60,580 nucleotides of DNA, from positions 1-60,580 of the forward strand of contig MQRK01238420.1 of NCBI GenBank assembly GCA_001938485.1. The letters are read 5' to 3'. This document shows, piece by piece, positions 23,640 to 57,357 of the stretch (position 1 is the first letter of the stretch; each line of letters opens with the position of its first letter). Position numbers and translations under genes: made by a program. The DNA is from Girardia tigrina (lineage: Eukaryota). Under the pieces are notes generated by a model. That model was not told where the DNA came from, did not search any database, and was given only the letters and a program-made list of their open reading frames with translations.

Positions 23640-26600
23640 TGGCGACCAAAGCCTTGGAGATCCTCCTATCGTGATCTGTCCCAGATCGATTCAAGAAAGA
23701 AGAAGATATCGAAATTTTCATTTCCAAATGCCGTAGATTCTTCGAGTTAACGCAGACCAAAGAAAATGTAAAAACTATTTTTGTAAAAAACTCTGCTAGA
23801 CGATGAGGCCATCAAAGATTATGAGGAAGTAGATGACGGCGTGAAGAATTTCGAAGATCGATTGCGACAAGCGTTCTCCGAGAAGAGTTCCTGATTTGAA
23901 GACCTGGCAGAAATTCTGGAATACCGGAGAGGTTCCGAATCAGTTGAAGACTACTTTAAGACTGTGGCACAATTGGCCAAGAAATTAGCCGCATACAATT
24001 GGGACGAAGCCGAATTAGAGAAGGAGATACTATTGCACTGTTCCAGTGATAAAGATATTTTAAAGGAAGTTGAGATGAGAGATTTAAATGAAATTACGGA
24101 TATAAAAAAAACAATGGCAAAAATGGACAAGATACAAAAGAAATATGATCATGTCAATGCAGTGAAAGAGGATTGGATCCAGTACAATCCCAAAAAAACA
24201 AGACACAATCTGGAATTAAAGGATTTGAAATGACATTGAATAACAACAACAAGAGAAGCCCACAACCGACAATGAGAAATTTTGAAGCGGAAAATTTACA
24301 ATTCGGAAGGCGTATAGAATCAAGAAGATGCTGGTCCCGCAATTTAATGGGACACATAAGCAGGAACTGCAGTAAAAGATTGCCCGTCACCTGCCATGCT
24401 TCCGGAACGCAGGGCCCTATCAGAAAAAAATGTTCCAATCTGAAATGTAACCGATGTGCAGCCAATGTCCATAGGAGGGAAGAATGTTATACGAAAATGA
24501 CAAGAAGACATTTGGCAAATAATCAAAGAGAAACGAGAAGACCTGATGTCACTACCACAGTTGGAAGAACTTGGAACAACAAAAACTCAAACCGAGCAGA
24601 TAACAAACAAATGCCGACTCAAAACGACCCTGTGAGGAATGTTTTGAATTGTGTATTGATATTGTGCATGGAGAATGTTGATTCGGATTGTGCCTCTCCT
24701 ACACAGATGGATGATTGATATTTTCTTTGATTCTTACTAATTAATAATAATTTAATTTAATTTTAAAGTAAAAAGATTAAAATAATTTTTGAATGTATTA
24801 TTTATTTTTTAATGTAATTTAAAATTTTAATATATTAATTTAATATGTTCTTTTTTAAAAACGTTTAGATTTAATTTCAAGCAATTACATTCTTTATAAT
24901 TAATAATTTTTATTAACAGATTTTCATTTATTGAAAATAATTAGTTTGAACTCAGAAATAAATTGATCAAGAGAGATGTCAAATAGTGAATGCGCTTGTG
25001 ATAATAATAAATGTTGCAAAACTCATATTGATGTTGTTAATAGACCCAAACAACCAAGATATTACGAGGAGACCGACTACGAAAGAGGAGTCCGGAGAGA
25101 TAAAGAAATAGCAGCGATGGAGATGGATGACGATGAATGCGGAGACTTTGAACAAGGAACCCAAAACGAGAGAGGCCCGACCGTAGAGGAGTCGGTCGGA
25201 GCCTTACAGTAAGCAATTTTGAATTTACCCGTTATCGTAAACGTAGTTTATTTTCTATCTATAATAATATTGTAGCCGAAAGCACAATCGGTATGTATAA
25301 TAAAAGTAATTTATCTAATAAAATTGAAACAGATAGTTTTAAAGATGTATTAAGTGATCAGAGACAACAATTAGTTCAGACAGATAAAACCACGATCGAT
25401 AGTACTAAAATAGTAAAATTTTTAAAAAAAGAGAAAGAGGGAATTTGTGAAATTAGAGACCTGACAACTAAAGAGACCGATATAAATGAAAGAGAAAGCC
25501 AGATCTCATACAATATAGTGCAAGTTAGACCGAGCATAAGTGTCGATATCTTGGGAACGAAGATAGAATGTTTACTTGACACGGGAGCCAGAGTGAATAT
25601 CATGAGGTATAACACGTTAAGACAGACCAGTGACGTAAAATTAGAACCGTCAGAAGAAAAGTTGAAATGCGCAAATGATAGTCAATTTGAAGTCATGGAC
25701 AAGGTATATTTAGTTGTCACATTTGGTGCAAGGAAAGGGAAAGTGACTCTTATAGTTGTAAGAAACATAAGTCCTGAAGTGATCGGTGGAATAGATATGC
25801 AGAGGAAGTTAGGATTAGAATTTCAATGGAAAGAGATCAATACAGAAAATAAAGAATCTTATATATGTGAAATAGAAGCAAAATTTGGTATACAAATATC
25901 GGACGAAGATAGAATGAAAAGAGCAGTAGAAATATTAGAACTAAGGGAGTCATCAAAACTTTTCGAAATCTTTCAGAAGTACAAGCATGTTTTCATGGCA
26001 GAAAAGTGGGATATAGGCCACACTAAGCCCACTAAGCATAAGATCATAACCAAAGGCGCGCCAATAAACATTAAACCCCGCAGACAACCGGTCCACTTGG
26101 AAAGCAAGTTAGCAGAAACTATAAAAAATTTACACGATAACGGTATTAAAAGACGATGCAACTCCCAGTGGAACACACCGATAGTGTGTGTTTGGGAAAA
26201 AGAAACTGTAGAAGTTAGACTCTGTTTAGATTTCAGACAATTGAACAATATTACAGAAAGACAAGCATTTCCGATACCCAATGTGGAGGAAATGTTAGAC
26301 TCATTACAAGGATCGAAATACTTCGCACCATAGATCTTGGTAACGCATATTACCAGGTAGAGTTTGATGAAACCTTACAAGAAAAAAAGGCTTTTTCAAC
26401 TAAGTCAGGCCAATTCTGCTTTACCAGGATGCCGTTCGGTATTACAGCAGCGCCCGGTACATTCCAGGAAGTTATGACAAAAGTATTGTTCACAATCGAG
26501 TCCGGAGCTTCGGTAGATCTTGACGATATATTGGTGGCCACAGAAACGTTAGAGGAACATTATGAAATCATCGGAAGAGTTATTCAGAGAATTGGTGAAG

Positions 26601-26700
26601 TTGGATTACGACTGAATCCTGAGAAATGCAAGTTCCTATGGAAGGAAGTCAAATTTTTGGGGCATATTTTGAACAAAAATGGAATCAGAACAGATCCTAT
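23640..26700 (+). mobile_element. Ty3/Gypsy LTR retrotransposon internal region (gag-protease-RT), truncated pseudogene
   Basis: gag with three degenerate zinc knuckles (24330-24490); protease LLDTGA; RT RLCLDFRQLN, MPFGITAAPGTFQ, DLDDIL, KFLGH. No RNase H, integrase or LTR seen. Confidence 0.9.
24631..25042 (+). repeat. Cys-rich exon-like cassette inserted in Gypsy gag, homologous to 38300-38745
   Basis: Shared blocks tgtgaggaat, tgtg(c/a)ctctcctac(a/t)cagatgg and NNKC....DVVN-coding sequence, separated by an AT-rich spacer in both copies. Confidence 0.65.
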
Positions 26701-27191
26701 TGTCATCAATATTGTCATCAATTTTTCATGCGTCTTTGAAAATTTCTTGAAAATAAATTTTACAATACTGTTTAAATCAAAATGTTTTAGCAGCTTTATC
26801 ATTAATATAGATTATAATTAAAATATTATTTGCTTAATTATTTGGTTAAAAATGAAAATAATTCAAATAAAAGAAATAATTTGATTATTTCAGTGATTTT
26901 TCAAAAATGAAATTCGATAGCGAAACGGGAAATTTTAGTATGGGGAAATTATATTGTGAATCTTGGGGTTCATTATTTTCCCGTGGAAACCAATCTGACA
27001 TGAAATTGTTCAAGGGTCATTTAAAAAACAAATTTTGTTGAATAAATGAATCGTCAATCAAAAAAGATTATTTTTTCGAAAAAATTAAAATAATTATTTG
27101 ATATCAATATTATTTTTTGGATAAATAAAGAAATGATAACAGTTTCAAACACTTTTGATTTTCGGTTTTATCTTTGAAAATATTCATAATA

Positions 27192-28473
27192 TTAGGTTGG
27201 TCGAAAAATAATGGCAGTTTTGGAACATAAATTTCAAAGACGTGCAAATTCACAGAAACAAAAGTTTATTAATCAAAGTATGAACCGTTGGCATCAATAC
27301 ATTTTTGCCAACGAGAAACAAGTTGTTTTATTCCATCAGCATAAAATGCATCGGTTCTCGAAGCGACGAATTCTTGGAAGGCATTTTGAGCATCATTTTG
27401 GTTTTTGAAAATTTTTTCACGTAGAAAGTTGTACAAATGCCTGAAAAAGTAGAGGTCCGTTGGTGAGAGGTCTGGTGAATATGGTGGATGAAGTAGGGTT
27501 TCATAGCCCAACTCATTAAGCGTTTGAAGAGTCACTTTTGAAATATGAGGTCTAGCGTTATCATGAAGAAGGATGGGACTTTTTCGATTTACCAATCCCG
27601 GACAAAGGGTTTCCAATTTTTTATGCATTTCATCAATTTCATGACAGTACCTCTCCGCTGTGATTGTTTCACCTGGATTCAAGAAACTATAGTGGATGAT
27701 TCCAGTATCACACCACCAAACTGTCACCATAACCTTACGGTGTTAGTTTCTGTTTTGGAAAGTGTTTCAGTACTTCATCTTTGTCCAACTACTGCGCAGA
27801 TCGACGTCGGTTATCATACAGGATCCATTTCTCATCACAGGTAACAGTACGATCAAGAAATGGATCGTTTTTATTGCGAAGATGATTGCAGAACAAATTT
27901 CATAGCGTCGGTTCTTTTGATTTTCATTCAAATCATGTGGAACCCATTTATCAAGTTTCCTGATTTTTCCAAGTTGTTTTAAATGATCCAGGACTGTTGA
28001 ATGACTAATGCCAAACCCATCTGCAAGTTCTCTTATTGTTGTACGGGGATCTGTTTCCACCATTGTCCTCAAATTGTCGTTGTTCACAGCAACTGGACGA
28101 CCACAACCTTCTTCATCTTCAAGGTTTTCATCTCCATCAGAAAATTTTCGGAACCATCGTTGTACAGTACTCTCAGAAGCTGTTTCCTTGTCAAACGCTT
28201 TATTGATATTGCGAGCCGTTTCTGCTGCTTTACGACCCAGTTTAAATTCGTACAAGAAAATTGCTCGAATTTTAATTTTTACAATTATTAATTTAGCACC
28301 GTAAATATTCTAAAAAATAACAGCAATATGTTAATAATGGCTATAGGAATATACAGCTAGGCATAAGATTTCAAATAATATCTAACACTAATGCATTTAA
28401 ACTTATATACATATCAAAGTAGATAAACAAAGTACAAAGCTCAAAAGCCGCCATTATTTTTCGACCAACCTAA
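27192..28473 (-). mobile_element. Near-intact mariner element (cecropia/Hsmar1-like), frameshifted
   Basis: TIRs ttaggttggtcgaaaaataatggc at both ends with TA TSD; ~1.28 kb; [15 protein letters not shown] and YSPDLSPTD motifs. Confidence 0.95.
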
Positions 28474-29070: not shown

Positions 29071-32000
29071 TTAAGTGCTTTCTACATTTTCATCGTAATT
29101 CTAAAAAAAATAAAAATAACATAAAAGAACATAAATATAAACTCAAATTAAACTTCATGATTGACAAATTAAACTTCCAACAGATCTCTTTAGAATATGA
29201 ACCCAAATCAATTCAACTAAGAGGCAGATAAATGACAAAATAATTATCCCTCCCGTACAAATATAAACTCCCGAAATTCCTTCTAGTTCAATTGCTGGAG
29301 CACTGTCTTGGGAGGCCGATTTATCACAACTATCTATGTTGGGATCTGACGTACTCCAATATTTGTCCACCCATTTATCAATATTTCCATTTTGCATCAA
29401 TTTTGTCAAACTAAATATTTCAACAATTTAAAAAGATTCTTGGAATTATAAACAAACTAATTTACTAAGCATTCATCATTGGAGTAAAGGCAGCATCTTT
29501 TTGAATAGTAAAAGCCATTGATGCCGTGTTAAATGTTTCTGGAATTATATATATTTTTGAACAGTTTCGTTTGACCACGTAAGCAGTTGGTGAGGTATCC
29601 GTGATGCACGCTAATTCAGATGCGTTATCTTGTAAAATCTAAATTTTTTTAAATAAAATTTTGAAAGTTAATCACAAAAGGAAATGTGTTTTTATTATTA
29701 CCACGTTTTTATTAGCTTGCTTTCTTGTCTGTTTGTCTGTTTGTCTGTCTGGAACAAATCTTGCGATTGATTTTTCGACCACTTTCAGTCATCCAATTCA
29801 GCTGAATTTTTTTATACAGGCTTGCTTCCGATGACAATACAATTTGATAATAAAAATTTTGAAAAAAATAATTTTTTCTAATTTTTTTTGCAAAAAAACA
29901 TTTACGATTATCTACAAATTTATACACTGTATTAAATAGCAATCTTTTCGTTTATTTTCATGAATGAAGTTTTATACAGGCTTGCTTCCGATGACAATAC
30001 AATTTGTTAAAAAAAATTTTGAAAAAAATTCCTAAATGATAACTAAAAATAGTTAAATAATATTATTAATAAAAAAAATTTTTTTATAAAAACAACCACG
30101 TTTTTCAAGCATTACCAATGCACTAAAAAGAGGAAAATAAGTTTTTTCTAGACATGTGAGAAATTTTATACCTAACCAAAATCGTGGGGCATAGAAATGA
30201 TCGATTGTTACTAAAAAGCAGTAAAGAGGAAATAGCAGTTACTAATAGGAGTAATTCAGAAATCCGCCCCACGTTTTTGGTTAGGTATAAAATTTCTCAC
30301 ATGTCTAGAAAAAAATTATTTTCCTCTTTTTAGTGCATTGGTAATGCTTGAAAAACGTGGTTGTTTTTATAAAAAAATTTTTTTTTATTAATAATATTAT
30401 TGGTTTTATAATTGTTTAGTTTTGATACATATTTCATTTGAAAATTATTTAAGTATTACTAAACATTCTGATTTTCATTATTTTTAAGTTTCTCTATGTT
30501 AAATGGAGTAAACAATTTGTTGGGGTACAACTTACATTAAACAAATCTTAAAGAGCATAACATGTAGGAATTTTGTGGTGAAAGCAAATATCGAACCCAA
30601 GATACATAAATAGGTAAGGTTTGTATTTAAGGGTCTCTCGATAAAAGCACTCTGGATATAAGTCTCACTCAAGTATTATTTAAATCTAAAATATAATAAA
30701 TATTAAAAAATGTAATAAGAAAGAAATATATCTATGTTAAATTTTATTTAAAGATAATAGGATATTCGTCTTCAATAACACTGGAAAACAAATTTCAATT
30801 GTTTTCTGCTTCACGTTCGAAAATAGTTCGTCTTTACATATTTTGCAATGTTGAGTTCAAATTTGTGTTCGGAATTGACCTATAATATACGATTGCATGG
30901 GAATTTCTATTTTCCCAGAATATAATCAAATATAATTATATAGCAAACACAAAAGAAACACAACAAGAATTATTGTAGCAACAAAATATTTTATTGTTAA
31001 TGTATAGTTAAAAATGCTTTGTAAAAGTTTTACTTTTGTAGGCATTATCTGGTTTATCCCTGATTAGATTCCAGCAGTAGTCCATCAGAATAGATGTATT
31101 CCCATTGCCATGAAACTTCTCATCATTACGGCAATGTCCTGACTAAATTTTTCTCCCTGTTCGTAACTAACATCTTCAAGATTTATTGAAAATTAATCGA
31201 GATGCGAGTGTAGGAAATGTATTTTTAGGGATCTGTTTCATTTCATCTGAATGCATGCTTTGATCATTTGTTCAACCAAATCTACTTAGTTTAAAGCCTT
31301 TTTATTACCGAGGGTGTTTTGGACTACCTCTTTAAGCACATTCCATATCATTAGCTTGGTTATTTCTAATGGTACCTTAAAATGTTGGTTTATAATTTGA
31401 GTAGAATTGTTAGGTCAAATAATTGGTGATAATAGAATAATCGAAAAATTCAATTGATGACAGTAGGTTTGAGAACTCTTTAAAATTACTTTTGCTGGAG
31501 AGGTTCACTGCCAGCATCCGCGCCCATGAGGATATGCCCCCCCCCCATTTGTTGCTCTTGGGGTCGTTAGCAAGCCGTGTTCATTCGTAGTCAAGGGAGT
31601 AAACGGAAAGTAAAGACATGGCGCCCACCGTACTGCAACTCACAATATTCTTGCTGAATCCCACTGAGTACATATCATTTTTGACGCATTAAACAGCACT
31701 TTCATTTATTTTTTTTCTTCCAAACACTTTTTTACATCCAACTGAAAACGTCGTCGTTCTACTTCTTTTATACAAATATTCAACAGTTCTGTCCCTGTAT
31801 TCATATTTAATCCATAACGACTAATCCAAAGTTTTTTATCGTCTTCTTTAACAGCTTGAAATGTCATGCTTTTCAATTTTTTATTTATGTCCATTGCTTT
31901 TAGTACAAAGGCATTACAATCTTTAAAAGTAAACGGACAAACGTCCTTGGTAAATAGGATCGTATATGTATGTTGTTTATGTATATGTTGTTTATTGTTT

Positions 32001-35000
32001 ATTATCGTATATGTTGTTTATTATACACTGTTATCATCAACATTTTGAAATTTTCATTTTTTATAAAATGAACTTCCCGAAGTATTATTTCGTTGCCTTT
32101 GATACAGTATTGATGCAAAGATCCGTGCTGCGTGACCGTGTCCACCGGTTCCTAGTGGTCACCGATATTGATTTTCGAAAGAAATGTGTTGTGAATGGAT
32201 TTTTTAATGGTCTTAACTTTTGAATTGGAATTTGTTTCATAACGCTATATATTAAATGATCAGTATTTTTAATACTTTGATCAGTATTTTTTAAATTATT
32301 CGATCAGTATTTTTTTAATTATTTGATTAGTATTATTTATTTTTGATCAGTAATTAATAAAAAATCGACCAGTATATAATTTTTATTGGTCAGTATTTAA
32401 TTGAAAAAGAACCGGTAAAATTAGAAAAGTAAATGAAATAATTGAATTTTTATACTGAATTTTCATTTATTAATGGAAGAATATTACATAAAAGTAAAAC
32501 AAAACTATATTTAATTTTTTCCTAAATCTATGTAGTTATAGAAATGCTTTATAGTTCGCTCTATATCAATTAATAATGCTTTTGTTGCTTTTAATGGTCT
32601 CCCTCTTTTATGTTCTTCACCAATTTGAAAATCTTGAAAATCGTTAAATGGTTAAATGAACACTGATTTCGAATAATAACGATTTTGTTGTTTCTTATAT
32701 GAAATTTTGTGAAAGTTTTTATGAAAATACTAATAAAAAACTAATTTATTTCATAAATGACGATTTCTGTCACTTATTTACTAATTATTTTGCTGAAAAT
32801 CAATTAAGGCTAAATTTGCAAAATTTCGTTATCATCTGAATCACGGTTTGTCTGTCAAGCTCAAATTTTACTGTGATAAAATGCGAAATAGTTGAGGAAC
32901 AGTGAGTGAATCCGTGTAAAGTTGAGATTAACCTGCATAGTCCGCATCGAGACGGTTCTGTCTGTACAGTACCTTTGCCGAAAGGCAGCGGAAGCCGACT
33001 CAATAAGCAATAAATACTAAATTATAATAATAACGCTTTAAAAATTAAAACAGAAATTTTCAAAGACGAAAATTCAGCTCCCCCCGTCATATATGACGGG
33101 TATTTTTCTTGTTGTATTTTGAAAAAAAGAAAAATAAATGATAACAAAAATTAAACATTTATTAAATTAATAAGGCTTTTGTTGCTTTATGGTCTGCCAC
33201 TTTTACGTTTTTCACCAATTGGAACATCTTTTGCAGCGGGCGGTGGTTTCACATATTTTAATCTTATTGATAATCCAATTAAATGTTTGCACATGTATTG
33301 CTTGAGAAAACTTGTACAAGTACATTTTCCTTCAATCCATTTGGTTGACATATCATCACTGTTTGGTTGAGTAACAATCCTCAAGGCAAAAGCTCTCTTC
33401 TTAAATTGGTCAAATGTACTCCATTGCATTTCTTTGATATTTTGTATTTGTTCTTCACTTGAGTTGGTTTCGTCGCCTGCTGGACAATAATATTCAGTTG
33501 AATTTTCAAGTATTGTTGAAGTAACTTTTTTATTGCTTTTTACCCATTGATAACCTTCAGTCAATTTTTGCAGTTCAATAGTTACTTTTCTTTAAATTGT
33601 TTATCATTGTTTGCGTATTGTTTTGACCATTGTGAAACTGTGTCCAAACATTGTTCCAAAAACCGAGATAAAGACATTCTTTCTCTGAATTTTTCTTCTT
33701 TTTTTTATAACCAGATTGTGCGATTATAACGCATTGTTTTGAGATGGTGTTGTATGAGCTGCTCCTTCGTACCAGTTTTGATGCGTTGATAACAAATTTC
33801 CTTAATGTATTCGATAAATATTTTTTGTTTTTTGGTAAGCCAGGTTTTAATAAACATCTTTTACTTTCTCAAACACGTCTTTGCTGCATGCCAATTGAAG
33901 TGTATCGATTTCTTCCATAATATTTTCATGAAATTCCTCATCGGCTAAATGAATATTCTTCACTACATTGCCAGGCATATGAACCCAACACATGATTAGT
34001 GACACGTTTTCACCGAACAGTTCTTTCAAAGCATTATGAATTGCATCGGAACCATCAGATATTAATGTGTCTACTTTAATTTTTTCACAAATTTTCTCAG
34101 TTGATTCTACCAAAGCTTGGAAAATAAATACAAAATCTGGTTTCGCTTCATTTGTGCAGATGCTGATACCATAAGGATGAAAATGCCGGTGCAAATCAGT
34201 TGTACCACTTATCAAAACTGGCATGTTTTCGCAAATAAATTTTTATGTTGCATCGGCATGGATTCTGCTTGATTTAATAGCCATTCTTAATAGCCGTTTT
34301 GTGGAAAACAAAATTCGAAATTGTTTTTCATTCATATCTTTATTATCATCATTTTCACCATAATTTATAAAATGCTTTGCCACATTACCTTTGTCATCGT
34401 CATCGATTGCTTCATTGTGATCAATGCACCATTGCTCAAGCTCGCCAATACTAATTTTTGTCGGTCCATATTTCTTTTATCGCAGTTGACTGATGTAATT
34501 TGAAATTTGCGTTTTGTTATTGATTTGAACATTGCTTTCTTGCAATTTTTCCAAAATTGCTTTTGGCTTAAATCTTAAATCAAAATATTTTTTACCTCTG
34601 CTTTTAATTCATTAGTTAGCCTGTTTGATGATTGTAAATTGGTATGACCATGTTCGCTGTTGCTTCTGAAAAGAATCACGTCTTCACTGCGACTATCAAA
34701 TAACAAGTACACACCAGCCGGACATTAGTCACCTCTCGATTTTGCTTTTTTGCAGCGGTAATAAACTTAATTTCCCTCTTGAGTATGATTTATATAATGA
34801 TAACTCCATGTATCTTCATCATAAATAAACGCCATTGTAGCTTCTTTATTTGGGTAGATATGTTCCATTTCCCAGTTATGTTTACTTTTTGCTCTTCGTT
34901 TTGCTTGAGTTGCACCATTTTCAACACTTTCGATATCGATTTCCTCATCGAAATAATACCGGTCAATCAATTTTATTATCAATCAAATTAATTATATTAC

Positions 35001-38000
35001 TAATCAAATCAATAAAATACACATTGACATATTTTATAACAGATGGGTTATTTTATATACTGATCCATAGGGAATTGATCAATAGGTACTGATCAATTAA
35101 ATAAAATACTTTTAATTTATTTAAATTACTGATTTTTTAAAGAAAAAAATACTGATCAAATAATTTAAAATACTGATCAATTAAATATAAGCCGTTCTGA
35201 TTGAAATATAAATTTTCCAAACTTTTGTTGGATTTTTCTTGTTTTGACAATTTATAAAACGTTTTATTATTGCCAAAAGAAGATTCATTTTTTGAATCTT
35301 TATGACGCATTTATAGTAATGTAAAATTTAATTGTTAATAATATAATTTAATAATTCAATGATAATAATTAAGTAAATCGATATCTTTTATTATTTCTTT
35401 TGGTTTCCAACTTTTTTCATAATTTCATTAACATATTTAGACAAAAGCAAGTAAAGTTTTTCTTTTTTCTTTCTTTTTTTTAATATAAATATACATATAT
35501 AAAGACCTGAAATTGGAATTAAAAATTCCAATTTCAAATCTTCATTTATTTTATATTTTTACTTTAAATAAGTTTTGATGTGAAACAAGGTTATTCTTAT
35601 AGAAATGGATAAATCGTTCTTTCACAGGAAATGCAAGAACAAGATATTCACGACTTAAATAATAAAACATCCCTAATCATTTAGGTTTAATGCTAAGACA
35701 TTTACTAATTTATTCTTTTATGTTATTTTTAAATTTCAATCTTAATTCTATAACTGAATTGATATCTCTATAAAAATTGAGATTTGAAAATCATAATTAA
35801 TATAAATAATTATAAATAATAATTGTTTAATGTTAAATTATTAATATAAATAAAATTGACACCCGCATGTCTATGGCCGCTTATAGTAAGTCTCAATAGA
35901 AGGGAACTGGCAAATACATATTTAAGTATATGGTTTTCATAAAAACATAATTAAAACTGTTAATTAAATAAATAATAAAATTAGTTAAAGAAGTCAGTTA
36001 CAGTTTGCTTTCAAAATTATTTGTAATGTAATATTTTTTGTGTAAAAATTAAAATAACATTTAAAACTATAGAAAACGTGGCATTTAGAGTTTCTTCTAG
36101 CTAATTATTTATAATTCAACTTATTGAAATAAACAAATAAATTCATAAATTAATTACCATTCTTGGACACTCGTCTATTGTAGAGATATAGGATATTCTT
36201 TTATTTATTTCTTGGTAAACAGGATATGGCGATTCCTACAGAATAGTTATATTTAGTTCACTTAAAATAAGTTAAACGTTACTCTTAACAACTTAGCAGT
36301 AATTGTATCTCCAGGTGTAACTATCTTAATATCCTTCCGTGCAGCTAATTCTTCCAAAGTCTCAATCGTCCTACCCTCACTTTTGACGGTTAAAAATGAT
36401 GTCAAATCAGCTAAATAGTTTGTTAATAACATAATTTTAAATTATTATATTATATTCATAGATTTTTCTTTTCTTATTTTCATACAAAAGTTTTAAACTA
36501 CATAATTCTCAACGAACATTATGCAGAATTTTTGTATCATTAATGGTAAAATATTTTCAAATGCTTGTATTAAAAAGCATCTAATTTTATTAGAGAATAA
36601 ACTAAATTTCAATAAAGTCAAATAAAATTATAAATAAATTAATAAGTATAAACTACTTAAAAATATAATTAATAATTTTTTTATAAATATTTAAAACACG
36701 TTAAAATACATTAAAATCATTTCATATTTCATTTTAGAAATAATTCGAAGCATATTTAATTGACAAACGAACCCATGAAATTTGCTGACCATCCTGGATT
36801 TGCCTTTTTTCATTCTTTACTTCACAAAAATTTTTATTAATATTATCATGATTTTTGTATAAATATATATAATTTTAATATCATATAATTTTGTATAAAG
36901 TCCGAAACAATTTTAGAATTAAAATTCTTCAATTTATTGATTTTTTCAAGGTGCTTCTGCATATGAAGTCTAATTGTGTCATTGAAATAAAAATTGAAAA
37001 GAAAGAGTTTTTGATCAATTTTCCAATTTTGAAAATCAATTTTCCTACAATTTTAATTCTTGCAATCGATTTATAAATAAATATTAAATATTCCTGCAGT
37101 AAGAATATAGAAACATTTCCTTTCTTGCTTCCATGAATAAAAAATCAATGATTGTTTACAAAATTCATGGCAAGGTATTAAAAGGTAAATATTTTAAACC
37201 GTACTTGTTGAACTAAAAATGTTTGTGAAAAAAGTGAATTGTAAATCCAGTGTTTTTATGGATAATTCCTCATTATTCTAGATTAATGATGGAATTATTT
37301 AATACAAAATTGATTACGAAAATTGGAAAATAGATCAAAAAAACTATATTAAACAGTCCCAAGAGACTATTATTAATCATAAACAAATAATTCGTGATTC
37401 GAGTTGTAAATTCTTCATCAATCTTATTCCAAATCGATGCTGTTAAATTGTTGTCGTCTTCATTTAAATTAATTTACTGGTGTAGAAAACAGAAAAAAAT
37501 AGAATTTCTATGAAAACAGACGATATACTAACACCAAATTAATTTACTGGTGTGAAAAATCTTGTATTCAAAATGGCAATTAATGACGACCGTAAACAGG
37601 TCACTTTCCATCGGCAAAAAACGAAAGATATTTTCACAAAATCCTGAATTATCTTAAGGAGAGCCGGCTTAAACATTGTTTTTGATGGCCCGAGCCAACA
37701 GAAATACATCTCTTTTCAGCTAACTCTGAAACACTTTTATATGCACAAAATATAATATCACTATTTTTCCTTCCTATCAAAACTAAAGCACTTTGGAATT
37801 AACCGCGTATACATTTAAAATTAACTCCAAGTAAATTGTTTTAATAATTATTTTCTTATAAATAGAATTTGCTAATAATTTTTTTTACTCATAAAAATGA
37901 TTAATGACTGATGATGATAAATAAATGATAAAAACAATTTATTAAAAAAATAATTAGGAATATTAAATTTCTAAACTGCGTTACTTTTCCTATTTTGAGT

Positions 38001-40756
38001 AACTCTCAATGGGTTACATTGTATGATCAGCAATGATTCAAAATAAAATAGGATTAAAAAAACCTCATTTTTTTAAAAATTAATTTGCAAAATTTTCTTT
38101 TGTTTGTAACAAAAGGTTTCAGCTTTTCTTTCTAGCACTAGGATCAGACTTAAAATTCATGCTTTGCAATATTTAAACTTAAGAGATTTTCAAAAGTAAG
38201 TTTTATGGATTTTGATAATGTCAGGATAAATTCAGTAATCTTTAAAGGACGAGACGTTCTTACTACCAATTTAAATGTCAATATAATTTTCATCAATATT
38301 GTGAGGAATAATTCGGAATGTTGTAAGTTTGTTGATTGTATGCTGTTTAGATTTGTGACTCTCCTACTCAGATGGGATTGATAAGTTATTTATTAATTAT
38401 TTAAATCTAATGAAATTAATTTAATGATATTAATTTTAAGTACTAATTAATTAAAGTTTGATAATTATAAATTTTAATATTATTTTCAGTAAACGATTTT
38501 AACTTATTAAATTTAATATATTTTAAAAATTATTGTTTATTTAAAAATTACGTAATGTCTTTTAATCCAATAAAATTATGAGAAATTAAAATGTAATATT
38601 AAAATTTCCCATTCATTGATTTTTTCATATTTGAATATGTATATAAACTATATCAATCAAAGAAAGATGACCTCTAAAAATTGTTGTGAAGAATCTGTTT
38701 GTGTTAACAATAAATGTTTGCATTCAAATTGTGATGTTGTTAATAAATATCATATGGCGGAGACCAATCCTCGTTTAAAAATTCGCATTAGTGTACAGTC
38801 ATGCTGAAGCACATTCAGAAAAATTATAAGTGACAACGAAAGCGCGTAATCTATTTCAATAGATAACTTTTCTATTCTTCAAACGAATTTATATATTAAG
38901 TAAATGTTTTACCTGTATAGGCACTAAAGACAATGATTGTAAAAAGCCACCACACTGCCAGCACAGTACGACAAGACATAGCATACGGATAAAAATCTTG
39001 TCCTTAATAATCATTACTTTATTTATTTAAGATTATTTTCAAAATATACACCTTGTTGCATGGAAGAACCAACTACATTCCAAATATGTTCTCGCAATCT
39101 TATTTCATCGATTATTGCAAATCTTAAGTTCAAATTCCACGCTGAAAATGGACTTAATAAAGCCAATATAAAACATGCTATAGAAGTCAAAAATATTGCT
39201 GTTCCTAGGGCACTCCATGTCGTCCAATGAAGAGGTCTGAAAGTTTTCAAATATGAAGGTTTTAATTTTTATCGCAAAAAATAAATATTTATTTATTTAT
39301 AATTTTTATCATAGTTTCCAAAAACAAATATTAAACGAAATAAACCGAAAAAAAATATTTCAATCTTTTTCAGGTATCAAAAATACGGGAGTGTTTCTTA
39401 TGTAAAGAACTATAAAAATATGAAAATAAAAAATATTTATATCAGAAACGGTATTTAATGATTGATTTATTTGAAAACCCTTCTCTTATACACCTATTCA
39501 AAAACATAAATGCCTTAATTTTATTCTAGAAGAAACTCTATCAAAAGCCTTTTTCACCTAAGATGTCTTAAAAGTAGTCATTCACAAACAATCATTAAAT
39601 TTTTAAATAAAATATCAAATTTTATGAAATAAAATATCTTATCTTTTTTTTATTTCCTAAAATAAAGATAAATAAATAAATTGTCTCAATAAACTTTTTC
39701 TATCATTGGCCGAGAAAAGGTTATCCGTGTGGAGAGTCTTGAAAGGGTATTGTCTTGCCATTTTCAGTGATCCGTTTTATTTATTTATTTTTTTGTTTCA
39801 TTATATTTTAAACATAAAAATACATTTTCACTGATCAATATTGTTGTTATTTAAATATTACAGATGTAGTTATTATTTTATTACGAATTGCGTTTGAAAG
39901 TAATGGATAAATAATCATGTTTTTTGACGCATAAAATCATAAAATGATTGCGAAAATTTTAAAGACACGAAGAATTTGGAGACAATTATATGTTCTACAA
40001 TACGATAACATAGTCATAATGTATATAATATTAAATATCTAAATAATTTCATAAATAATACGGTATAATCGATCTATGTAAAAACTAATCATTTTATCAA
40101 TAACAAGCTTAATTCTTCTGATGAAGAGATTATATGAAGAAACTTTTCTTATAATTTCCATACTCTGAAGGAGTAAAGGATTTATAGAGTTTTTGACAAA
40201 TGGTCTCCTGTAGGCGTTAAAAGTAATTTAGTTTTCCTCACTAACAAATTTTGTAATTACTTTTCCAATAAATCAAAAACAAAATTGCGTATGAATCCAA
40301 TTTTAGTCTCCCAATTTAAATGTCACAAGTCTGAATCATTGTACATTGGAAAGACAAATAGTCCCCTCTGTACTAAAATTGCTGAACATACCCAATGAAG
40401 TAGAAAAAACTATTTTCGATCACATTAAGAGCTGTCACGGAACTCACAGGAGGGTAAAGAAGAATGATTTTTAGGTTTTGATTAGTAATTTTGACAGCAA
40501 CTATGAAAGGATAATTACTGAAGCATTGTTAATTAAGTTTGATAGACCTTGTTTAAGCATGTAAAGCGATTCTTCCAATCATATTAGAGTAATCTGATAT
40601 GAGACATCGTGACGTAATGATCTTCCGATTATAAATACAACAGCCATTTACTTTATTACAGAACTGACGATGTCACAATAGTGGTGAAACATGTTTCCAA
40701 AAAAATTAAAATTGCTTTATTGTTTTTTTATTATTAAGTGTACTCTGATAAATTGA

Positions 40757-40813
<57 letters not shown>

Positions 40814-43800: not shown

Positions 43801-46800
43801 CAAAATTTATCTTCGGCTTCATATAGCATTGGTCTATAAAGTTATGTATATAAGTTATATATGCTTTATAAAATAAATTTTTTGGGTTGAAAAGTCTCAA
43901 TGTCTCCTTATTATCTAAGAGCAAGTAATTGACAATTAGTTGTAGGAGGTCTTATGTGGGCATCCTATCTCTTTCATTGGTATTGATCCGTAGGCTCTTT
44001 AGATGGTCCACCCCAACTAAAAAGCACTAGCAGCCCCCCGATAGGCCTCCTACAAGATTGTCAGCTTTCCGATTACGATGTTCCCTAGTACAAAACGAGC
44101 AACCATTATCGGATGTTCCATGATTTAGCATTCCTTTGGCCGTTCCCGTGGACTTTGAACAGCCAGCGAAGGAACAGTTGAAATTTTCTTTTTCAGATAA
44201 ATCCTTTGAATGAAAATTTAACACATCTCTAAGGAGATTGTTTCCGAGAGATTTGTTGAAACATTTGTATCGACGGCCCTTACTTGAATATTGCTTGATT
44301 GTTGGATTATCTTCCTTCTTCCTGATATCACCGTTCAATTTTACCCCACCACAAAAATCGCCATCACAACAGTCAGCTGCCTTTCTTCTTTGATGTTTCT
44401 GTTGAATTTGATTGGATTGATTTGCTTCTTCCATGTGATCTGTCTTGTAGCGTCTGGTCAGCCACCCCATTGATGCTTAGCTCCTGGATCAATACTGACA
44501 TGGATAAGATTTCTGCTTGTCCGGTGCCGTTTCATGATCAATTTTGATATATCTATGCAGCTCCTTTTGTTCTACAAAGGCCTTCTTGCAAAGCTCGTAG
44601 TGATATAGGACCATTTTCATTCTCGGTTTGATCAGTTTCGGAAGATCTTCGGTCTTCCTCCCTACGATACTCCTGTTGTGGATTAAATTCTCGAGCATGT
44701 CTCGCATTGTAAGATGACCGCCATCTGCTAACAGGCTGATAACAGAGTCAACAGAGGCGGTCTCTCCGAAAAGCCATTCCGCATCGATCCGTAGGTATTC
44801 TTCGAGTTTCTGTTTGCTTCTTCCTGTGACCTTTCTATTGCATTTCATTGTGCTTCTCAGAATTCTTTGCACACATAGCTGACCTTCTCCTGTTTCCAAG
44901 AGAACATGGAACAGAAGCCGTCTCTTGGCAACGATATTCATTGGATGTTCTAATGCGATACTGATCGAGTCCATTCTGATATGATCTTTCTTATCTACAT
45001 TACGTGCTGTTCTAGTGCAAGCGTTATGTAAGGCTTCAAGTTTTCTGATGAGGCTCTCGTATGTACGCGAGATGGAAGAATGAAAAACAAAATGACAAAT
45101 ATTATAGAACTTCTATGTGAATTTTTTCGAAAATAAAATAATCGTACTTAGTAGATTGTAAAATGAAATATAAAAGATATATCGATTCGTGATCATTATT
45201 GTTTTTATAAAATTTTCGCTCGATTTTGGTTTCTGTGAAAGACGTATATTTCGATGATACAATCATGTTTGATTTTTTTTCATAATTTAAATAAAAGACA
45301 TTTTTTTATTTTGTTATGTTGTTCGAATTTAATTGATCGAAAGTCATCATGATTCGTTTAAAAACAAGAGTGTCAAATTAAAAAGAAACCGACTTTTTTT
45401 AAAAGATCACAACGTAGTGTTTTTTTTTGAAAGACTGAATAGTAATTGTCTGGCTCATTGGGATTGGCCAGTTTGAATTTGTTAAGATGTGATTGGCCAA
45501 TAAAAGTGTGTGGGTATGTTGTGTCTTTTTATTGAATATTTTATTCAATAAATGAAAAAAATTATCATCTGAGATGTAAAATGATGTGTATTAATCCCAT
45601 TGAATATTTCAAGGGATACAGCAACAGCAATAAATTCTTTCTGATAAAATAGGTTCTTTAAGTCCTGCTGAACATAATAGTGAACGCTGCCAACAAACTG
45701 CTGGACTTCGACACGGAAATCAGTATAACAAAAGCGGAGCTCATCCTCAAACTGGGAAGAATTGCGCGATCAGAAATGAAAGCATTTATGAAGGCTTTGC
45801 AAGCCAGTGCCGATATTTCCATGATCGAAGGGTTCTATTCAGTATACCCAAGGGCGACTAAAAGAAGCATTATCTGATGGTATTTTCAGCAGAGAGCGCA
45901 TTTGCTGTTAAATTCGACAAAAGCGAAACTTTAGCAATAATATTTTGAATTGTAAAATATTTATTCACATAAATAAACATTTTCTTACGTGAAATTCATT
46001 TTTTTCGATAGAACTAGCAGTATTTCTTTGATAACGCCATCTATTTGATCTAGACGATTCAGAGTTGTATTTCCGTAGTAAATTAATGTTGGTGTAAGCT
46101 GAGAGAACAATCTTGTAAATTTTTAAAAAGAAAACTATCAAAACTCTGAAACTTTTTATTAAAAAAATAATAAATATGAATAATACAAATTAGATTTAAT
46201 AAATATGCTTTAAGGAAAGTTTTAGCAAAATATCACATAATTAGGTCCAATAATGCAAAACTTAATTGATCAAACAATACCCCTAATTGATGCTTTTTAG
46301 CAAAATAGAAAAATCATAAACCCTTTGCGTTAAATATCTTTAATTAAGTATTTTAAGAAATAACTCGATTTAGAGATTCGGCGTCAACTTTTTTCGAAAA
46401 GAAATTCATGATCCACTAAAAAAACTCTGAGTTTTCAATTAGACTAAACAGATTAAAGTTTTTTAAACTTTTGTAAAAGTAGAAATTGTAATTTTGGATA
46501 CAACAGAATAGAACAAAAGATAATTTTTTGCTACGCTGATGTGAGTTTAACTTTCGTTTACCCCTTACAATCCAATCTTTATTCTTGAAAAAAATCTGAT
46601 ATACTGATCGAACAACTGATTAAAATTTAAGTAAAATTTTACAAAACTATTGAAAATCTTTCACATTTTAGTTTCTAACCTTACATCTACCAAATTATAT
46701 GCATTACTTATCACTTAGATCCATTTGAGCCTGATTACAATATAAAAAATTAATAAGCTGATTTTTTACTAAATAAATTTATACATTATCTAGAACTGAT

Positions 46801-53400: not shown

Positions 53401-56400
53401 AATAAAATTACTACCGGTATTCAACACGCTTTAAAAAGAAATAATAACACCTAGAAATATTTGATTTACGAGCAAAGTATTCTAAATAATTAATAATGCA
53501 GTAAAACAAACAATTAGTCACTGTTAATTTATGTACATTCAGCGTTTCAATGCAAAATAAAAATAAACCTCTAAAAGCCGTATATCTGGTTTTGTTCTAA
53601 GACTTTCGACTAGTATTGTATTTCTATAATTTTACTGAAAAGTTTTTATTTAAAATTATTATATATATTTTCAATATTTTTTTTAAAATACTTTCTCCAA
53701 GTTTACTTGTTTCATTGTAAGAGGCATTCACCACACACATAATTCATTCATTATTTTTAAAAATAACTTATTATTATTTTGGTTTTTGAGAATTGAAGAT
53801 AGAATTTGACTTTTAGGTTTAAAGGTTTTTCAAAGATTAATTGTCTAAAAATTAAAAACAAAAATTTTTCTGATATCTGATAATTTTCAACATGATCCCG
53901 ATAAATCCGTTGAAGAAACATCTTTATTCAGGGTTTCCTTAAAGCCTAGAGATATAATTAAAAATACAATTTTTCAATAGATGTTGTGGTGCCGACAGCC
54001 GAACCGAGTGGCGGNNNNNNNACGTGCCGGGACTTGGGGCTCAGAGAGATCGCCACGTCGGTTCGACGGCGTCTAGTTGCCGATCCTGTCCGGTGATCAT
54101 TGGTTGATATGTCATGGGATGTCGGTCCCGCGATCGGCTTGCGGCGGTTCCGCTTCTGTGAACGCTGATACCGCTCCGTTCGTCGAAATACGGCCCGAGT
54201 GTGCGATCAGTAAAATTGTGGGGATCCATCATGCAATTGTGTGAGGTGATAGCGACGGGATTTGACCGATTGGGACCGGTGCCGCACAGTGTGGTTTCCG
54301 TCTATATCATCATCGGGTAAAAACATCCGAACGACGATTAATATTCAATATTGATCAAAAATATATAAAAAACGTTCATAATTTTTATTCAAAAACTAAA
54401 CATTAATATTTGAAATTGTGTTCTCTTCCAATATTTGTTTCATTTAATTAAACAAATCATTTATTAAAAAAGTTTTTTTAACAGTTTTTGCATTATCAGT
54501 TGTTTGACCGAAACCCCATAGATGTAATAAATAAACCAAGAGTTTTATAATTTGAATATTTAATAACATCTTCAATACTAAGGTGATTCAAAACTTTTTC
54601 GTCTTTTTATGCCTTAAATTGTGACAATTATTTTATAAGATAGTTATATTTTAGCATTATTCATTATTATATTATTTATTATGGTATTACATGACAAATC
54701 TTCTTGTATAGTGTTGGTGTATTCATTAAACGTTTGTTTGTTTATTCCTATCAAATTATGGAGATTTAAAAATACAGAATTTTGCAACATTACTGGAAAA
54801 AAGGCTTCAACACAGCTGCTACAGTCCGCGAAATATGTGAAGTAGAAAGTGAAAGTGCGGTCAGTGTTCATGTGTCACAATTGTAGTTCAAGCTTTTCTC
54901 AAGTAGTAAAGTCAATTTAGAACACCAAACTCACTCTGAGAGATCATTTGTTGTTGTTGATGACACTCTACGTCAAGCTCTGAAGGAGCAGCCCTTCACC
55001 AGAACACGGAATTTATCAGTAGAGCTTGGTCCTTCACAACCCACTATTCAACGCCATATTCATCAACTTGGTCCTTGTTAAAAGATGGTGTTGACAAATT
55101 CCTAACGAACTGACAGCCATTCAAGCACAACAACGACTTGAAAAAAGAAAAGAATTGCTTGGTGAACCCCATGACAGGCGTTTTTTTTCAGAAGAATCGG
55201 GCCCGGAGATGAAAAAGTAGTTATTTTCCGTAAACCCAACAAGAAGATTCAGGGACTCTACCCTGGTAAATCCGCCCAACCCGAGGTTAAACAAGGACGT
55301 TTCCATTGAAAGGCTATGCTCTGTGTATGGTAGAATTTCGAAGGTGTGATCCATTTCATGCTGATTCAGCAATTCTTTGCTTTTTTCAAGTCGTTGTTCT
55401 GTGAATATATTTTCATTATAATGCCTTCTTTTAAAAAAAACCAATGAAGAGTTCCTCGGCACTATTTTTATCTTTCATTTATTAAAAAACTTCTTTAGAT
55501 AAAATTATAAAAGATAATATATTATCATAATTAATAACAAATATTTCATTAAGAATTCATGTTCGAAATAAAACGTTCTTACCAAACTGATTAACTTTAA
55601 AATAGAATTTACATCGTCCAAGAATATAAATATAAATCGGATTTTAAGTTTGATAGAATTTTTCATTTGCGATTCAATTTGATTATCTGAGAAATTCCAA
55701 ATATTAATTTGATTTGATTTTATATTTTTATGTGTTAATTTTTCCACCATCATTGCCAGGAATGAGGGATCTGATAAAATGCTTTCAATTACAAATACAT
55801 ATTTGTTCCTTTCTACAATACCCATTTTATTGTTGTGGATTAAAACCACCTCTTTCCATGCCTCTGGTGCTATTAGTTGAATAACGAAATCTGCAAATTT
55901 TAGTTTTGGGTAACCAAACACGTACTCCCTTTTATCTGAAAGAAATAAAACATATAGTTTTAGTTGAAGGGTTCATTTTATAAACCAATTATTATCATGA
56001 ACATTTTCAAATAGCATAAATAGAGCATTAATAAGAGAACTAATATAAATATATATTTAGAAAAGAATATCTAAGTATGTTTGCGTTATATATATTGCCA
56101 GCAAACGTTGAAAAATTGTCCTAATCATCCTTAATATTGTTTCTGTCAAAACAAATTTAATAAAATTTTGAGCAAATCCCGATATTTGCCCGTTTAATTT
56201 TCCGCTGCTGATTTCTCGCCTTGGTCCGGAATTTCAAGGAGGTTTTCAAATCACAAGAAGTCCATTGTTTTTCTACATATAGAGCCACTGCATTTTCCAT
56301 CCCCGGAGGAACGTTTTAGATGAAGGGAAAACTTTGTACCTGAAAACGGGCACTTTGCGGGTACACACTGTGAATGTTCATTAAAATCATTTCCAGATCA

Positions 56401-57357
56401 ATCCTTCAAGAATAACATTTTGAATCGCCTCCTCATGATTAGTCAATTGATATCTGGATTGATGTTTGGCGGCCAACTGTGTTTTTTTCGATATAACTCG
56501 AAAATGATGCATCGTATTTGGAAGTTACTGACTTTGACAGAGAGAGAGAAAGCGTAGAGAGAAAAATAGTTCAATAGCAGTAGGAAAATAGCAGCTGTCA
56601 AGCTGGTTTTTTTACAAGGATATGACGAATGTGCAGCATTAAAAAAACTACTGAAAAACAAATCACGATTTTTGTAATAAACATTTTAAAATTATAATTT
56701 TTTTTAATATCATACGTTATATATTACAAAAATTTAATCTCCATTATAATTAATTCTGAAAAGCATATAAATATATGATGTCAAATATTACATTGTACTT
56801 AATCAAGATAAATTAAATTAGAAATTTATACACCTTAATCAAACATTATACAAAAAAATCACAATAACTTTTATCGAATACAAAAATTACCTCCTTCTAT
56901 TTTAAAAATGGTACTTATAGGTATACCAAAAGTTAGAAATCCAAGCTTTGTAAATTGGTCTACAACAGGTTTCATTTGGGACTCCTCGAGTATAGCAATA
57001 ACAACAACAGAAGTTGCCGATTCACAAACTTAAAGAAACACTAACTATCACGAAAATATAAAATAATTTAACTTTTAAGACTGATTTCAAAATAGTTGTG
57101 ACTTTTCAGTTGAAAGAATTGTAACTTTGGAAAAGTTAGATTTGAAAAGCGCATTTTTATAATTGACTCAACGAAGAGAACATCGTTGTGGATCCGAAGG
57201 TCATTTGATATAATGACTTTAAACAGAAAGGTAAGGACAAAATAAAATAAATAAATATTTTATAATATATAAGTCATAGAAAATGTAAAAACTTACCAAT
57301 TGAATGTATTTCCAAAAAAATTACAAATATAAATGTAAATGATAAAACTTTATTCAT
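29071..57357 (-). CDS. Ionotropic glutamate receptor-family subunit, paralog A (complete, 17 exons, ~835 aa)
   Basis: All-phase-compatible GT-AG exons: 57297-57357 (signal [20 protein letters not shown]), 57073-57216, 56891-57028, 55583-55935, 50869-51051, 50689-50826, 50408-50638, 45989-46098, 43740-43833 ([14 protein letters not shown]), 42334-42476 ([14 protein letters not shown]), 39052-39236 (M1, GSSMQQG), 38913-39002 ([13 protein letters not shown]), 36283-36410 (ADLTSFLTV), 36158-36235, 29466-29638, 29182-29410 (KYW..C, M4), 29071-29100. The last junction is the least certain. Confidence 0.9.
29182..29638 (-). CDS. iGluR paralog A exons 15-16 (S2 end and M4)
   Basis: [15 protein letters not shown]...FNTASMAF and [18 protein letters not shown]...C...LEGISGVYI; intron 29411-29465. 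Confidence 0.9.
29698..30055 (+). mobile_element. Helentron/DINE-1-like non-autonomous element (tentative)
   Basis: accacgttttt sub-terminal motif, (CTGT/TTGT)n microsatellite at 29726-29752, 34 bp internal direct repeat (29813 and 29973); the motif recurs at 30095. Confidence 0.45.
30056..30401. mobile_element. Foldback/MITE-like element: ~135 bp near-perfect inverted arms and ~75 bp spacer
   Basis: 30056-30190 is the reverse complement of 30266-30401; second copy at 40909-41143. Confidence 0.85.
31040..31400 (-). mobile_element. Chapaev3-like transposase C-terminal fragment
   Basis: [32 protein letters not shown]. Confidence 0.7.
32241..35196 (-). mobile_element. Mutator/MULE DNA transposon with SWIM zinc finger, decayed
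   Basis: Long TIRs built of (t)gatcagtatt repeats (32241-32400 / 35040-35196). DAT..., [27 protein letters not shown]; [16 protein letters not shown]. Confidence 0.85.
36158..39236 (-). CDS. iGluR paralog A exons 11-14 (M1, pore loop, M3, S2 start)
   Basis: RPLHWTTW..M1, [51 protein letters not shown]. Confidence 0.9.
38300..38745 (+). repeat. Second copy of Cys-rich exon-like cassette (antisense, in iGluR intron 12)
   Basis: Homologous to 24631-25042; ORF ..[26 protein letters not shown]. Confidence 0.6.
40090..40759 (+). mobile_element. Penelope-like element 3' end (GIY-YIG endonuclease and pLTR)
   Basis: [26 protein letters not shown]...FDHIKSC...[14 protein letters not shown]; followed by a hammerhead motif and (AT)n. 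Confidence 0.85.
40655..40700 (+). ncRNA. Minimal type I hammerhead ribozyme motif (stem I degenerate)
   Basis: CTGACGA-T-GTCAC[AATA]GTGGT-GAAAC ATGT T: core, stem II and palindromic ACATGT stem III. Confidence 0.65.
40909..41143. mobile_element. Second, truncated and reverse-oriented copy of the 30056-30401 foldback element
   Basis: Nearly identical arm plus inverted spacer; cut off at the mariner that follows. Confidence 0.85.
41144..42299 (+). mobile_element. Decayed mariner element (same subfamily as 27192-28473)
   Basis: [35 protein letters not shown]; right TIR ...ttttaaacaacctaa-ta. Confidence 0.9.
43930..45070 (-). mobile_element. Degenerate multi-C2H2 zinc-finger region, probably the N-terminus of an RLE-type (R2/NeSL/CRE-like) non-LTR element
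   Basis: [40 protein letters not shown] and [14 protein letters not shown]; intronless, with in-frame stops, inside an iGluR intron. Confidence 0.5.
46895..47365 (+). mobile_element. 5'-truncated Penelope-like element 3' end
   Basis: NHIIRC...[32 protein letters not shown], homologous to 40420-40590; then hammerhead, AATAAA and (AT)n. Confidence 0.8.
47169..47211 (+). ncRNA. Minimal type I hammerhead ribozyme
   Basis: Stem I cattgca/tgtattg; CTGAAGA-T; stem II GCC[GAAAT]GGT; GAA; palindromic ACGCGT stem III; GUU cleavage triplet. Confidence 0.8.
49510..50084 (+). mobile_element. Small MULE-derived non-autonomous element
   Basis: Imperfect TIRs ggttcatttggtccacgttcatttggac / gtccaaatgatgcgtacctaaatgcaacc; internal [17 protein letters not shown] resembles a MULE C-terminus. 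Confidence 0.5.
51409..52900 (-). mobile_element. hAT DNA transposon remnant
   Basis: Dimerization domain [30 protein letters not shown]; DQAT*WG.TY motif; ggagtcg/cgactcc subterminal repeats at 52769-52892. Confidence 0.8.
52525..52690. repeat. 21-bp minisatellite (aattgttaatttttgaaatac) x ~8 within the hAT element
   Basis: Visible tandem units; gives the spurious KLTIVFQ-repeat ORF. Confidence 0.85.
52905..53390 (-). mobile_element. Tc1-like transposase fragment
   Basis: [33 protein letters not shown]. Confidence 0.8.
54758..55370 (+). mobile_element. Decayed mariner transposase fragment
   Basis: [11 protein letters not shown]..., [21 protein letters not shown]. Confidence 0.75.

Follow-up and report, generated by a model that had tools for sequence, protein, structure and literature searches.

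The closest described systems to the gene analyzed here are the ionotropic glutamate receptors (iGluRs) as well as the ionotropic receptors (IRs). This gene lies in a 60,580-nt stretch of the Girardia tigrina genome (contig MQRK01238420.1; the whole stretch is called the window hereafter) and encodes a receptor subunit whose M3 gate motif departs from the iGluR motif SYTANLAAF. AMPA and kainate receptors (GluA2, GluK1/2) share its domain order, fold and Gln at the Q/R site of the pore. However, the window gene carries T, D, M and AYTADLTSF in place of their Gly653 (part of a G-S/A-T triplet), Glu705, Tyr732 and SYTANLAAF, and it falls outside their clade in both trees described below. The co-receptors IR8a and IR25a, to whose group its clade is sister in both best trees, have in common with it Asp705, an N-terminus of the length of an amino-terminal domain (ATD) and a similar start of the M1-M2 loop. 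They differ in that the window gene has Gln instead of Pro in the pore and has lost the M3 Asn, and in that its clade contains many paralogs rather than one or two. Furthermore, the gene and its clade lack the co-receptor extra loop at the start of S2, which is present in the IR8a rows and in an IR25a-like gene of the same genome (C213550). Tuning IRs are expanded, arranged in tandem, variable in the pocket and degenerate in M3, as is the clade, and likewise combine the absence of the extra loop with a short tail (PMC7882480). In contrast to them, the clade appears to retain a recognizable, if divergent, ATD and has a constant clamp of Arg485 and an acidic residue 705; some antennal IRs also have N-termini of 400 aa. 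For flatworms, one IR of S. mansoni, expressed in miracidia, has been described (PMC5080760).

On the sequences compared here, the altered M3 is a trait of a flatworm-wide, locally expanded receptor family and not of a single rewired gene. The window gene itself is an intact subunit gene from the family of glutamate receptors, and its altered gate motif is real.

Results

The gene comprises 16 exons on the minus strand, from 57357 to 29155, that join into a single frame of 834 aa with GT-AG borders at all 15 introns. The initial annotation had pointed to the right gene and to an intact open reading frame, which holds despite the transposon remains in the introns, but its span of 29466..43833 covers exons 9-15 only. 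The product shows the S1-M1-M2-M3-S2-M4 layout of the iGluR superfamily, preceded by a hydrophobic N-terminal segment and an ATD-like region of ~400 aa and followed by a tail of ~12 residues. Exon 1 (57297..57357) provides the start codon and the hydrophobic, signal-peptide-like segment (aa 1-20). The ATD-like region runs through exon 2 (57073..57216, aa 21-68; based on frame and GT-AG borders only), exon 3 (56891..57028, aa 69-114), exon 4 (55583..55935, aa 115-232), exon 5 (50869..51051, aa 233-293) and exon 6 (50689..50826, aa 294-339), and ends in exon 7 (50408..50638, aa 340-416), where S1 starts and which has a counterpart exon in the paralogs. S1 continues through exon 8 (45989..46098, aa 417-452), exon 9 (43740..43833, aa 453-484), which holds a Trp at the 450 position, and exon 10 (42334..42476, aa 485-531) with the equivalents of Thr480 and Arg485. 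M1 and the M2 pore loop with the Q/R-site Gln are encoded by exon 11 (39052..39236, aa 532-593). Exon 12 (38913..39002, aa 594-623) contributes the first half of M3, ending in A-Y-T, and exon 13 (36283..36410, aa 624-666) its second half (A-D-L-T-S-F-L-T) together with the alphaF triplet T-I-T. The remainder of S2 is distributed over exon 14 (36158..36235, aa 667-692), without the co-receptor extra loop, exon 15 (29466..29638, aa 693-749), with the equivalents of Asp705 and Met732 and with junctions outside the RNA contigs, and exon 16 (29155..29410, aa 750-834), which adds M4, the short cytoplasmic tail and the stop codon.

M3 is split by a phase 1 intron of 2,502 nt (38912-36411, minus strand) with GT-AG ends, and the paralogs are split at the same place. 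When three AG acceptors (36380-36480) were combined with 11 GT/GC donors (38860-38960), a single pair left M3 intact; the other stop-free option, a GT at 38925, costs four M3 residues. A six-frame pattern search of the window returned no exon of the canonical M3 type. Moreover, a sequencing run from another organism that is ~92-96% alike (run X2; taken to be RNA) contains a 569-nt contig in which exons 10, 11, 12 and 13 follow each other without a gap, with 7, 15, 4 and 9 differing letters, respectively. This contig omits the 47-nt intron 13 at CT..AC, which are canonical ends, and a second contig of the run joins exons 8 and 9. The spliced state is thereby seen in a relative for five of the 15 introns, including the one that divides M3. 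The donor and acceptor survey and the 569-nt contig together rule out alternative splicing that restores SYTANLAAF, so that the splicing check proposed in the initial annotation came out in favor of the altered motif. Three further runs (X1, X3 and X4) gave no spliced piece among the matches listed. Introns 14 and 15 join the Asp705 exon and the terminal exon to the model; they were placed by frame, splice signals and paralogs. Run X2 gave no cover over exons 15 and 16, which weighs neither way. The 10 of 15 introns without RNA support could be taken as a sign of a mis-assembled model or a decaying pseudogene. We give this explanation almost no credence, given the single open frame, the GT-AG borders throughout, the gap-free spliced contigs of the relative and the paralogs with the same exon borders.

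The whole gene model aligns to iGluR-family relatives with E-values down to 2e-75. On its own exons 11 and 13 the Lig_chan match stays below the cut-off, whereas relatives pass the cut-offs of both PF10613 and PF00060. The ANF_receptor domain (PF01094) was not matched in the five ATD-region frames scanned. However, aa 21-400 match the PF01094-bearing region of the Macrostomum protein P0042, which exon 4 resembles, with a score of 78 against a mean of 35 and a maximum of 55 in 300 shuffles. The 'full ATD' proposed earlier is a divergent, ATD-like N-terminus of ~400 aa, recognized only via the Macrostomum relative. In an AlphaFold model of a second Macrostomum relative (P0005), the ligand-binding domain (LBD) is confident, while ATD and pore are not (mean predicted local distance difference test score 52). 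A fold search with this model confirmed the iGluR fold and gave nothing further; the best PDB matches of a Macrostomum relative are of the AMPA/kainate type at 25-28% identity. A PDB search with exon 11 placed GluN1 and GluN3A on top at non-significant E-values of 1.8-5.5, and the N-methyl-D-aspartate (NMDA) reading suggested by it is rejected by the trees.

The core of M3 reads AYTADLTSF, with Ser1 changed to Ala, Asn5 to Asp, Ala7 to Thr and Ala8 to Ser. Since five of the nine motif residues (Y, T, A, L, F) survive, 'rewritten', as the motif had been called, overstates a change that is nevertheless genuine. Position 8 is what we take to be the lurcher site. Its Ser is much smaller than Thr, which counts against a leaky gate of the kind considered next. 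Positions 2, 4 and 5 of the motif are reported to be the best conserved (PMC6307864), and the lurcher Ala to be invariant in placozoan receptors (PMC12226733). The agonist potency of NMDA receptors rises ~10- to 100-fold upon substitution at positions 5 and 8, while an Ala7-to-Thr change in GluN1 leaves it unchanged (PMC10973091). The potency gains, together with IR76b, which leaks because of a Thr at its lurcher site (PMC7882480), are what speaks for a leak, temperature-dependent, otherwise ligand-independent or modulatory subunit whose closed gate would be destabilized by the lurcher-site Ser and Asp5. This seems highly improbable to us, as the ligand clamp is strictly kept across the paralogs and Asn5 variants did not show a raised open probability (PMC10973091).

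Pocket and pore residues were mapped by profile alignment to GluK1 and GluK2 and are numbered after GluA2 as in PMC12226733. In S1, Thr480 and Arg485 are retained, while Pro478 is replaced by Val and Tyr450 by Trp. In S2, the triplet 653-655 is T-I-T, residue 705 is Asp and residue 732 is Met. The Q/R site is a Gln, not the Asn expected of NMDA receptors, and an acidic residue (Asp) follows four positions further on. The register of the triplet is backed by a paralog with G-S-T in the same columns and by the helix start in the model of the Macrostomum relative. All residues assigned in the initial annotation (S1 Arg, T-I-T, D705, M732, pore Gln) were recovered in these profile alignments, but Asp705 cannot serve as the NMDA/delta marker it was thought to be, because IR8a carries it too.

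The backbone clamp of Arg485 and an acidic residue 705, as defined for iGluRs in PMC6307864, is present, and its constancy across the family points to an alpha-amino acid ligand. In the alignment of PMC13648236, no glutamate-selective receptor lacks Gly at position 653, and the loss of Gly653 is evidence against glutamate selectivity. Ile654, Met732 and Val478 also stand against a channel that is gated by glutamate after all and altered in its kinetics only. Conversely, Thr480, Arg485, Thr655, the acidic 705 and the Q/R Gln are kept, one paralog has G-S-T, and Thr653 combined with Thr655 is compatible with glutamate under the rule of PMC12226733. Glutamate gating therefore keeps a small share of the probability, and we consider it quite unlikely.

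A search of the 1.43-Gb assembly with exon 11 as probe matched 48 places. The 44 that were examined fall into 32, 29 or 25 clusters at 95, 90 and 80% identity, i.e. ~29 genes, a count that is approximate because haplotype copies are included. Among 22 distinct exon-13 sequences, Asp occupies M3 position 5 in 19 and Asn in the remaining three; Thr7 is found in all 22 and Ser8 in 20. The triplet 653-655 takes 12 forms in the 16 of these sequences that align at all three positions. Arg485 occurs in all 29 recognizable S1 exons (31 rows, two of which are not S1) and residue 705 is acidic in all 13 S2 exons, while none of nine S2 rows with a legible position 732 has Tyr there. The Q/R site varies over the 44 loci (Met 18, Leu 11, Ile 8, Phe 3, Val 2, Gln 2), the window gene being one of only two with Gln. 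One paralog lies in tandem on the minus strand of the same contig (C238420:70600-101600, 101.6-70.6 kb) and has identical exon borders, the triplet T-S-T and Met at the Q/R site.

The genome also encodes AMPA/kainate-like, NMDA-like and WD-motif receptor genes with a canonical M3. As the AMPA/kainate-like and NMDA-like genes are kept, the clade is an addition to the conventional receptors and not their replacement. One AMPA-like receptor gene (C14560:1399-3804) has an uninterrupted frame of 858 aa, occurs on three contigs and is possibly a retrocopy. The WD-motif genes are a receptor pair (C225278 and C206232) with a W-D motif at 704-705; they are unassigned to a family and are candidate glycine-gated Epsilon-type channels. 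Deviant M3 motifs occur outside the clade as well (C106828, C235864, C157357, C249568, C237830), e.g. SYTAKLAAY, AYVANYGAI, VYVNNIMAT and VYASNLLPY.

Beyond this genome, exon 11 retrieved 31 representatives among 1.84 billion. We looked up 30 of them; the 16 that are named all come from platyhelminths (13 from Macrostomum and the others from Spirometra, Cichlidogyrus and Opisthorchis or Fasciola gigantica), and the cluster of one further representative holds a named Fasciolopsis member. Members from Fasciola hepatica and Echinostoma came in with the family profile. The suggestion of a lineage-specific receptor thus applies at the level of the phylum, every named clade member being a platyhelminth, but not to one gene, since paralogs, Macrostomum and parasites share the motif. 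The relatives include Macrostomum lignano A0A1I8H5G6, A0A1I8JJ64 and PAA64923.1, Cichlidogyrus KAL3310748.1, Spirometra VZI22347.1 and, from flukes, Fasciola hepatica D915_000719 and Clonorchis KAG5447008.1. They join the window gene in a clade with 100/100 support and share its signature in the M1-M2 loop and M2-M3, Arg485 and, wherever confidently aligned, Asp705. Most have an acidic residue for the M3 Asn, and the Macrostomum members also have a short tail. They differ in being annotated as hypothetical or 'kainate 5', in reaching only 24-37% identity over the LBD and transmembrane domain, and, for most, in keeping Ala at the lurcher site, where the expansion in the G. tigrina genome has Ser. 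M3 variants among the relatives include AYTGDLTAHL, YYTADMIGYL, TYQADMTAFL and AYQAELVAFL, and two members keep Asn.

In word-based searches, exon 11 matched none of 52 candidates and alignment A1 gave four matches only. A metagenome scan with P0002 confirmed none of 213 pattern matches. Two Capitella proteins (IR261.2 and IR261.3, dataset of PMC2924276) resemble the window gene in an M3 that starts AYTADLT and in Asp705, but they lack the flatworm signature motifs and have Ala at the lurcher site and another alphaF triplet; judged by these sequences, the likeness is likely convergence. We found no description of the clade in the mostly open-access literature searched, including supplements (some figures being images only), and its two signature motifs had no match in the supplement files searched, some of them incomplete. 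A published tree includes Schmidtea (PMC10861852), and clade members may already stand there unnamed.

For the phylogenetic placement we ran IQ-TREE twice, on 38 rows (16 of 54 dropped) and on 31 rows (one new, two extended), with outgroups made of exon concatenations and labelled by motif and tree position. Four short family rows were also left out. The clade of the window gene with Macrostomum, monogenean, fluke and tapeworm members received 100/100 in both trees. It is sister to, and not nested inside, a group of insect IR8a and two IR25a-like genes of the same genome, with a support of 96/81 (38 rows) and 92/89 (31 rows). The AMPA/kainate rows form their own clade (100/99 in the 31-row tree) and the NMDA rows are separated from the window clade with 100/98 and 98/96. 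The window gene groups with neither canonical family in the two trees, so that the grouping named in the initial annotation as a refutation did not appear. The IR25a-like genes (C213550:17377-24842 and C214334:1039-3838) have the M3 sequences MYTANLSAQL and MHTANLAAFV. One exon of C213550 matches the extra loop of the IR8a co-receptor, and the protein resembles by eye a Capitella supplement protein taken as IR25a. Its first PDB match was GluD1; we read it as IR25a-like because of the extra loop and its position in the tree, which holds no Delta rows.

An IR ancestry of the clade is favored by this sisterhood rather than demonstrated. It finds some further agreement in the family profile, in which 49 of the 50 matches after six flatworm proteins were insect and mostly named IR8a/IR25a, although these candidates depend on shared words, so that sampling may account for the surplus of IR8a. 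The top Atlas feature match was a 'Variant Ionotropic Glutamate Receptor' cluster, while a second Atlas search returned generic names. Several other observations weigh against such an ancestry. Approximately unbiased (AU) tests leave groupings with AMPA/kainate receptors (p-AU 0.171 and 0.0505) and with the WD-motif pair (p-AU 0.089) unrejected. The trees contain long branches, and the WD-motif pair is present among their rows, but Delta, Epsilon, Phi and Lambda receptors, true IR25a and tuning IRs are absent. Furthermore, the window protein scores 146 bits on the AMPA/kainate profile against 129 on the IR8a profile, and its best matches among solved structures are kainate receptors.

These points bear on a divergent AKDF- or Epsilon-type receptor, neuronal or paracrine, that would assemble by itself or together with paralogs, respond to an amino acid of endogenous origin (glycine, alanine, D-serine, GABA or aspartate) and have no part in environmental sensing. 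The retained ATD, the unrejected non-IR placements and the conserved single members kept by parasites agree with it. Moreover, expansions of the Epsilon and AKDF lineages switch ligand among close paralogs, and an alanine/glycine receptor shares the TD motif (PMC13648236). We nevertheless regard this account as somewhat unlikely: the clade joins the IR co-receptors in both best trees, AMPA/kainate, NMDA and WD-motif genes with canonical M3 exist separately in the genome, and ~29 paralogs with many pocket variants would seem to exceed the apparent need for endogenous transmitters.

Discussion

We consider it close to an even chance that the gene product serves, comparably to insect IRs, as the subunit that tunes a sensory cation channel to its ligand, predicted to be an amino acid that is not, or not only, glutamate. 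A non-glutamate ligand and a role in chemosensation, both predicted in the initial annotation, are plausible in view of the expansion, the variable pocket and the tree position beside the IR co-receptors. A design of tuning subunits and co-receptor (PMC7882480) agrees, by analogy, with a family that is large and in part tandem, whose gate is fixed while pocket and pore vary, whose tail is short and whose genome also carries IR25a-like genes. Branches of the planarian brain have been linked to chemosensation and are marked by 'GluR1' (PMC5055394).

In such a channel, the ligand would be held at its alpha-carboxyl and alpha-amino groups by Thr480, Arg485 and Asp705, and the variable 653-655 triplet together with the non-Tyr residue at 732 would set the side-chain preference of each paralog. 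Closure of the clamshell would then pull M3; its pore-lining Thr and hinge Ala persist, and the energetics of opening might be retuned by Asn5-to-Asp, Ala7-to-Thr and the Ser at the lurcher site. The Gln at the Q/R site would permit entry of Ca2+, and assembly could occur with the IR25a-like co-receptor of the genome or with paralogs.

Set against the tuning-subunit reading are the following points. Tuning IRs lack a typical ATD, whereas the clade keeps a divergent one in its N-terminus of ~400 aa. T653 and T655 satisfy the glutamate rule of PMC12226733, Tyr732 excepted, and position 732 is reported to be no principal determinant in PMC13648236, where ligand prediction is called unreliable. 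The triplet (entropy ~2 bits) does not vary more than other exposed exon-13 positions do, so that selection on the pocket is not demonstrated.

Taken further, it is possible, if on the doubtful side, that flatworms built a chemoreceptor repertoire of their own from the IR25a/IR8a lineage. Its members would bear an ATD, be tuned to amino acids and carry an acidic M3 gate, with ~30 genes here, multiple copies in Macrostomum and representatives in flukes, tapeworms and monogeneans. If so, flatworms would have in this family their missing receptors for food and host cues, and it would stand as an intermediate form between synaptic iGluRs and the tuning IRs that lack an ATD. With its paralogs and relatives, the apparent oddity becomes a defined and testable gene family. 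Should it be sensory, its genes are named candidates for food finding in planarians and host finding by parasitic larvae, for which RNA interference and cell atlases exist. The paralogs also offer a natural panel for iGluR biophysics, with a fixed Asp at a best-conserved M3 position (PMC6307864), Ser at the lurcher site and variants of pocket and pore.

Other features of the window

The window is AT-rich, transposon-laden animal DNA. A BTB/T1 exon of the potassium-channel type (59897-60210, minus strand; Pfam BTB_2, E 1.6e-16) is situated between the two receptor genes that stand in tandem. As a pattern search of the window and the remaining 43 kb of the contig revealed neither a pore nor a voltage-sensor motif in plausible context, the exon may belong to a KCTD-like gene or be a fragment. 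Intron 7 contains an exact 62-nt duplicate around a 50-N gap (47185-47358), likely a scaffolding artefact, and intron 8 a repetitive element on the minus strand (44027-45112) with frames of 207 and 149 aa, the former without a Pfam match. At 23895-26821 lies what remains of a Ty3/gypsy-like retrotransposon, with a match to aspartyl protease, and mariner remnants are found at 41150-42245, 27269-28309 and 58372-59097. Splice scoring proposed extra exons in intron 14; the candidates were transposon or low-complexity frames, and none was added. The same intron harbors a Mutator-like element (MULE) at 32250-35185 with terminal inverted repeats and SWIM and MULE domains, to which a 1.2-kb contig of run X2 is similar. 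A palindromic element resembling miniature inverted-repeat transposable elements occurs in two copies, in intron 14 (30071-30401) and intron 10 (40906-41144), with 120-nt arms that are 98% complementary.

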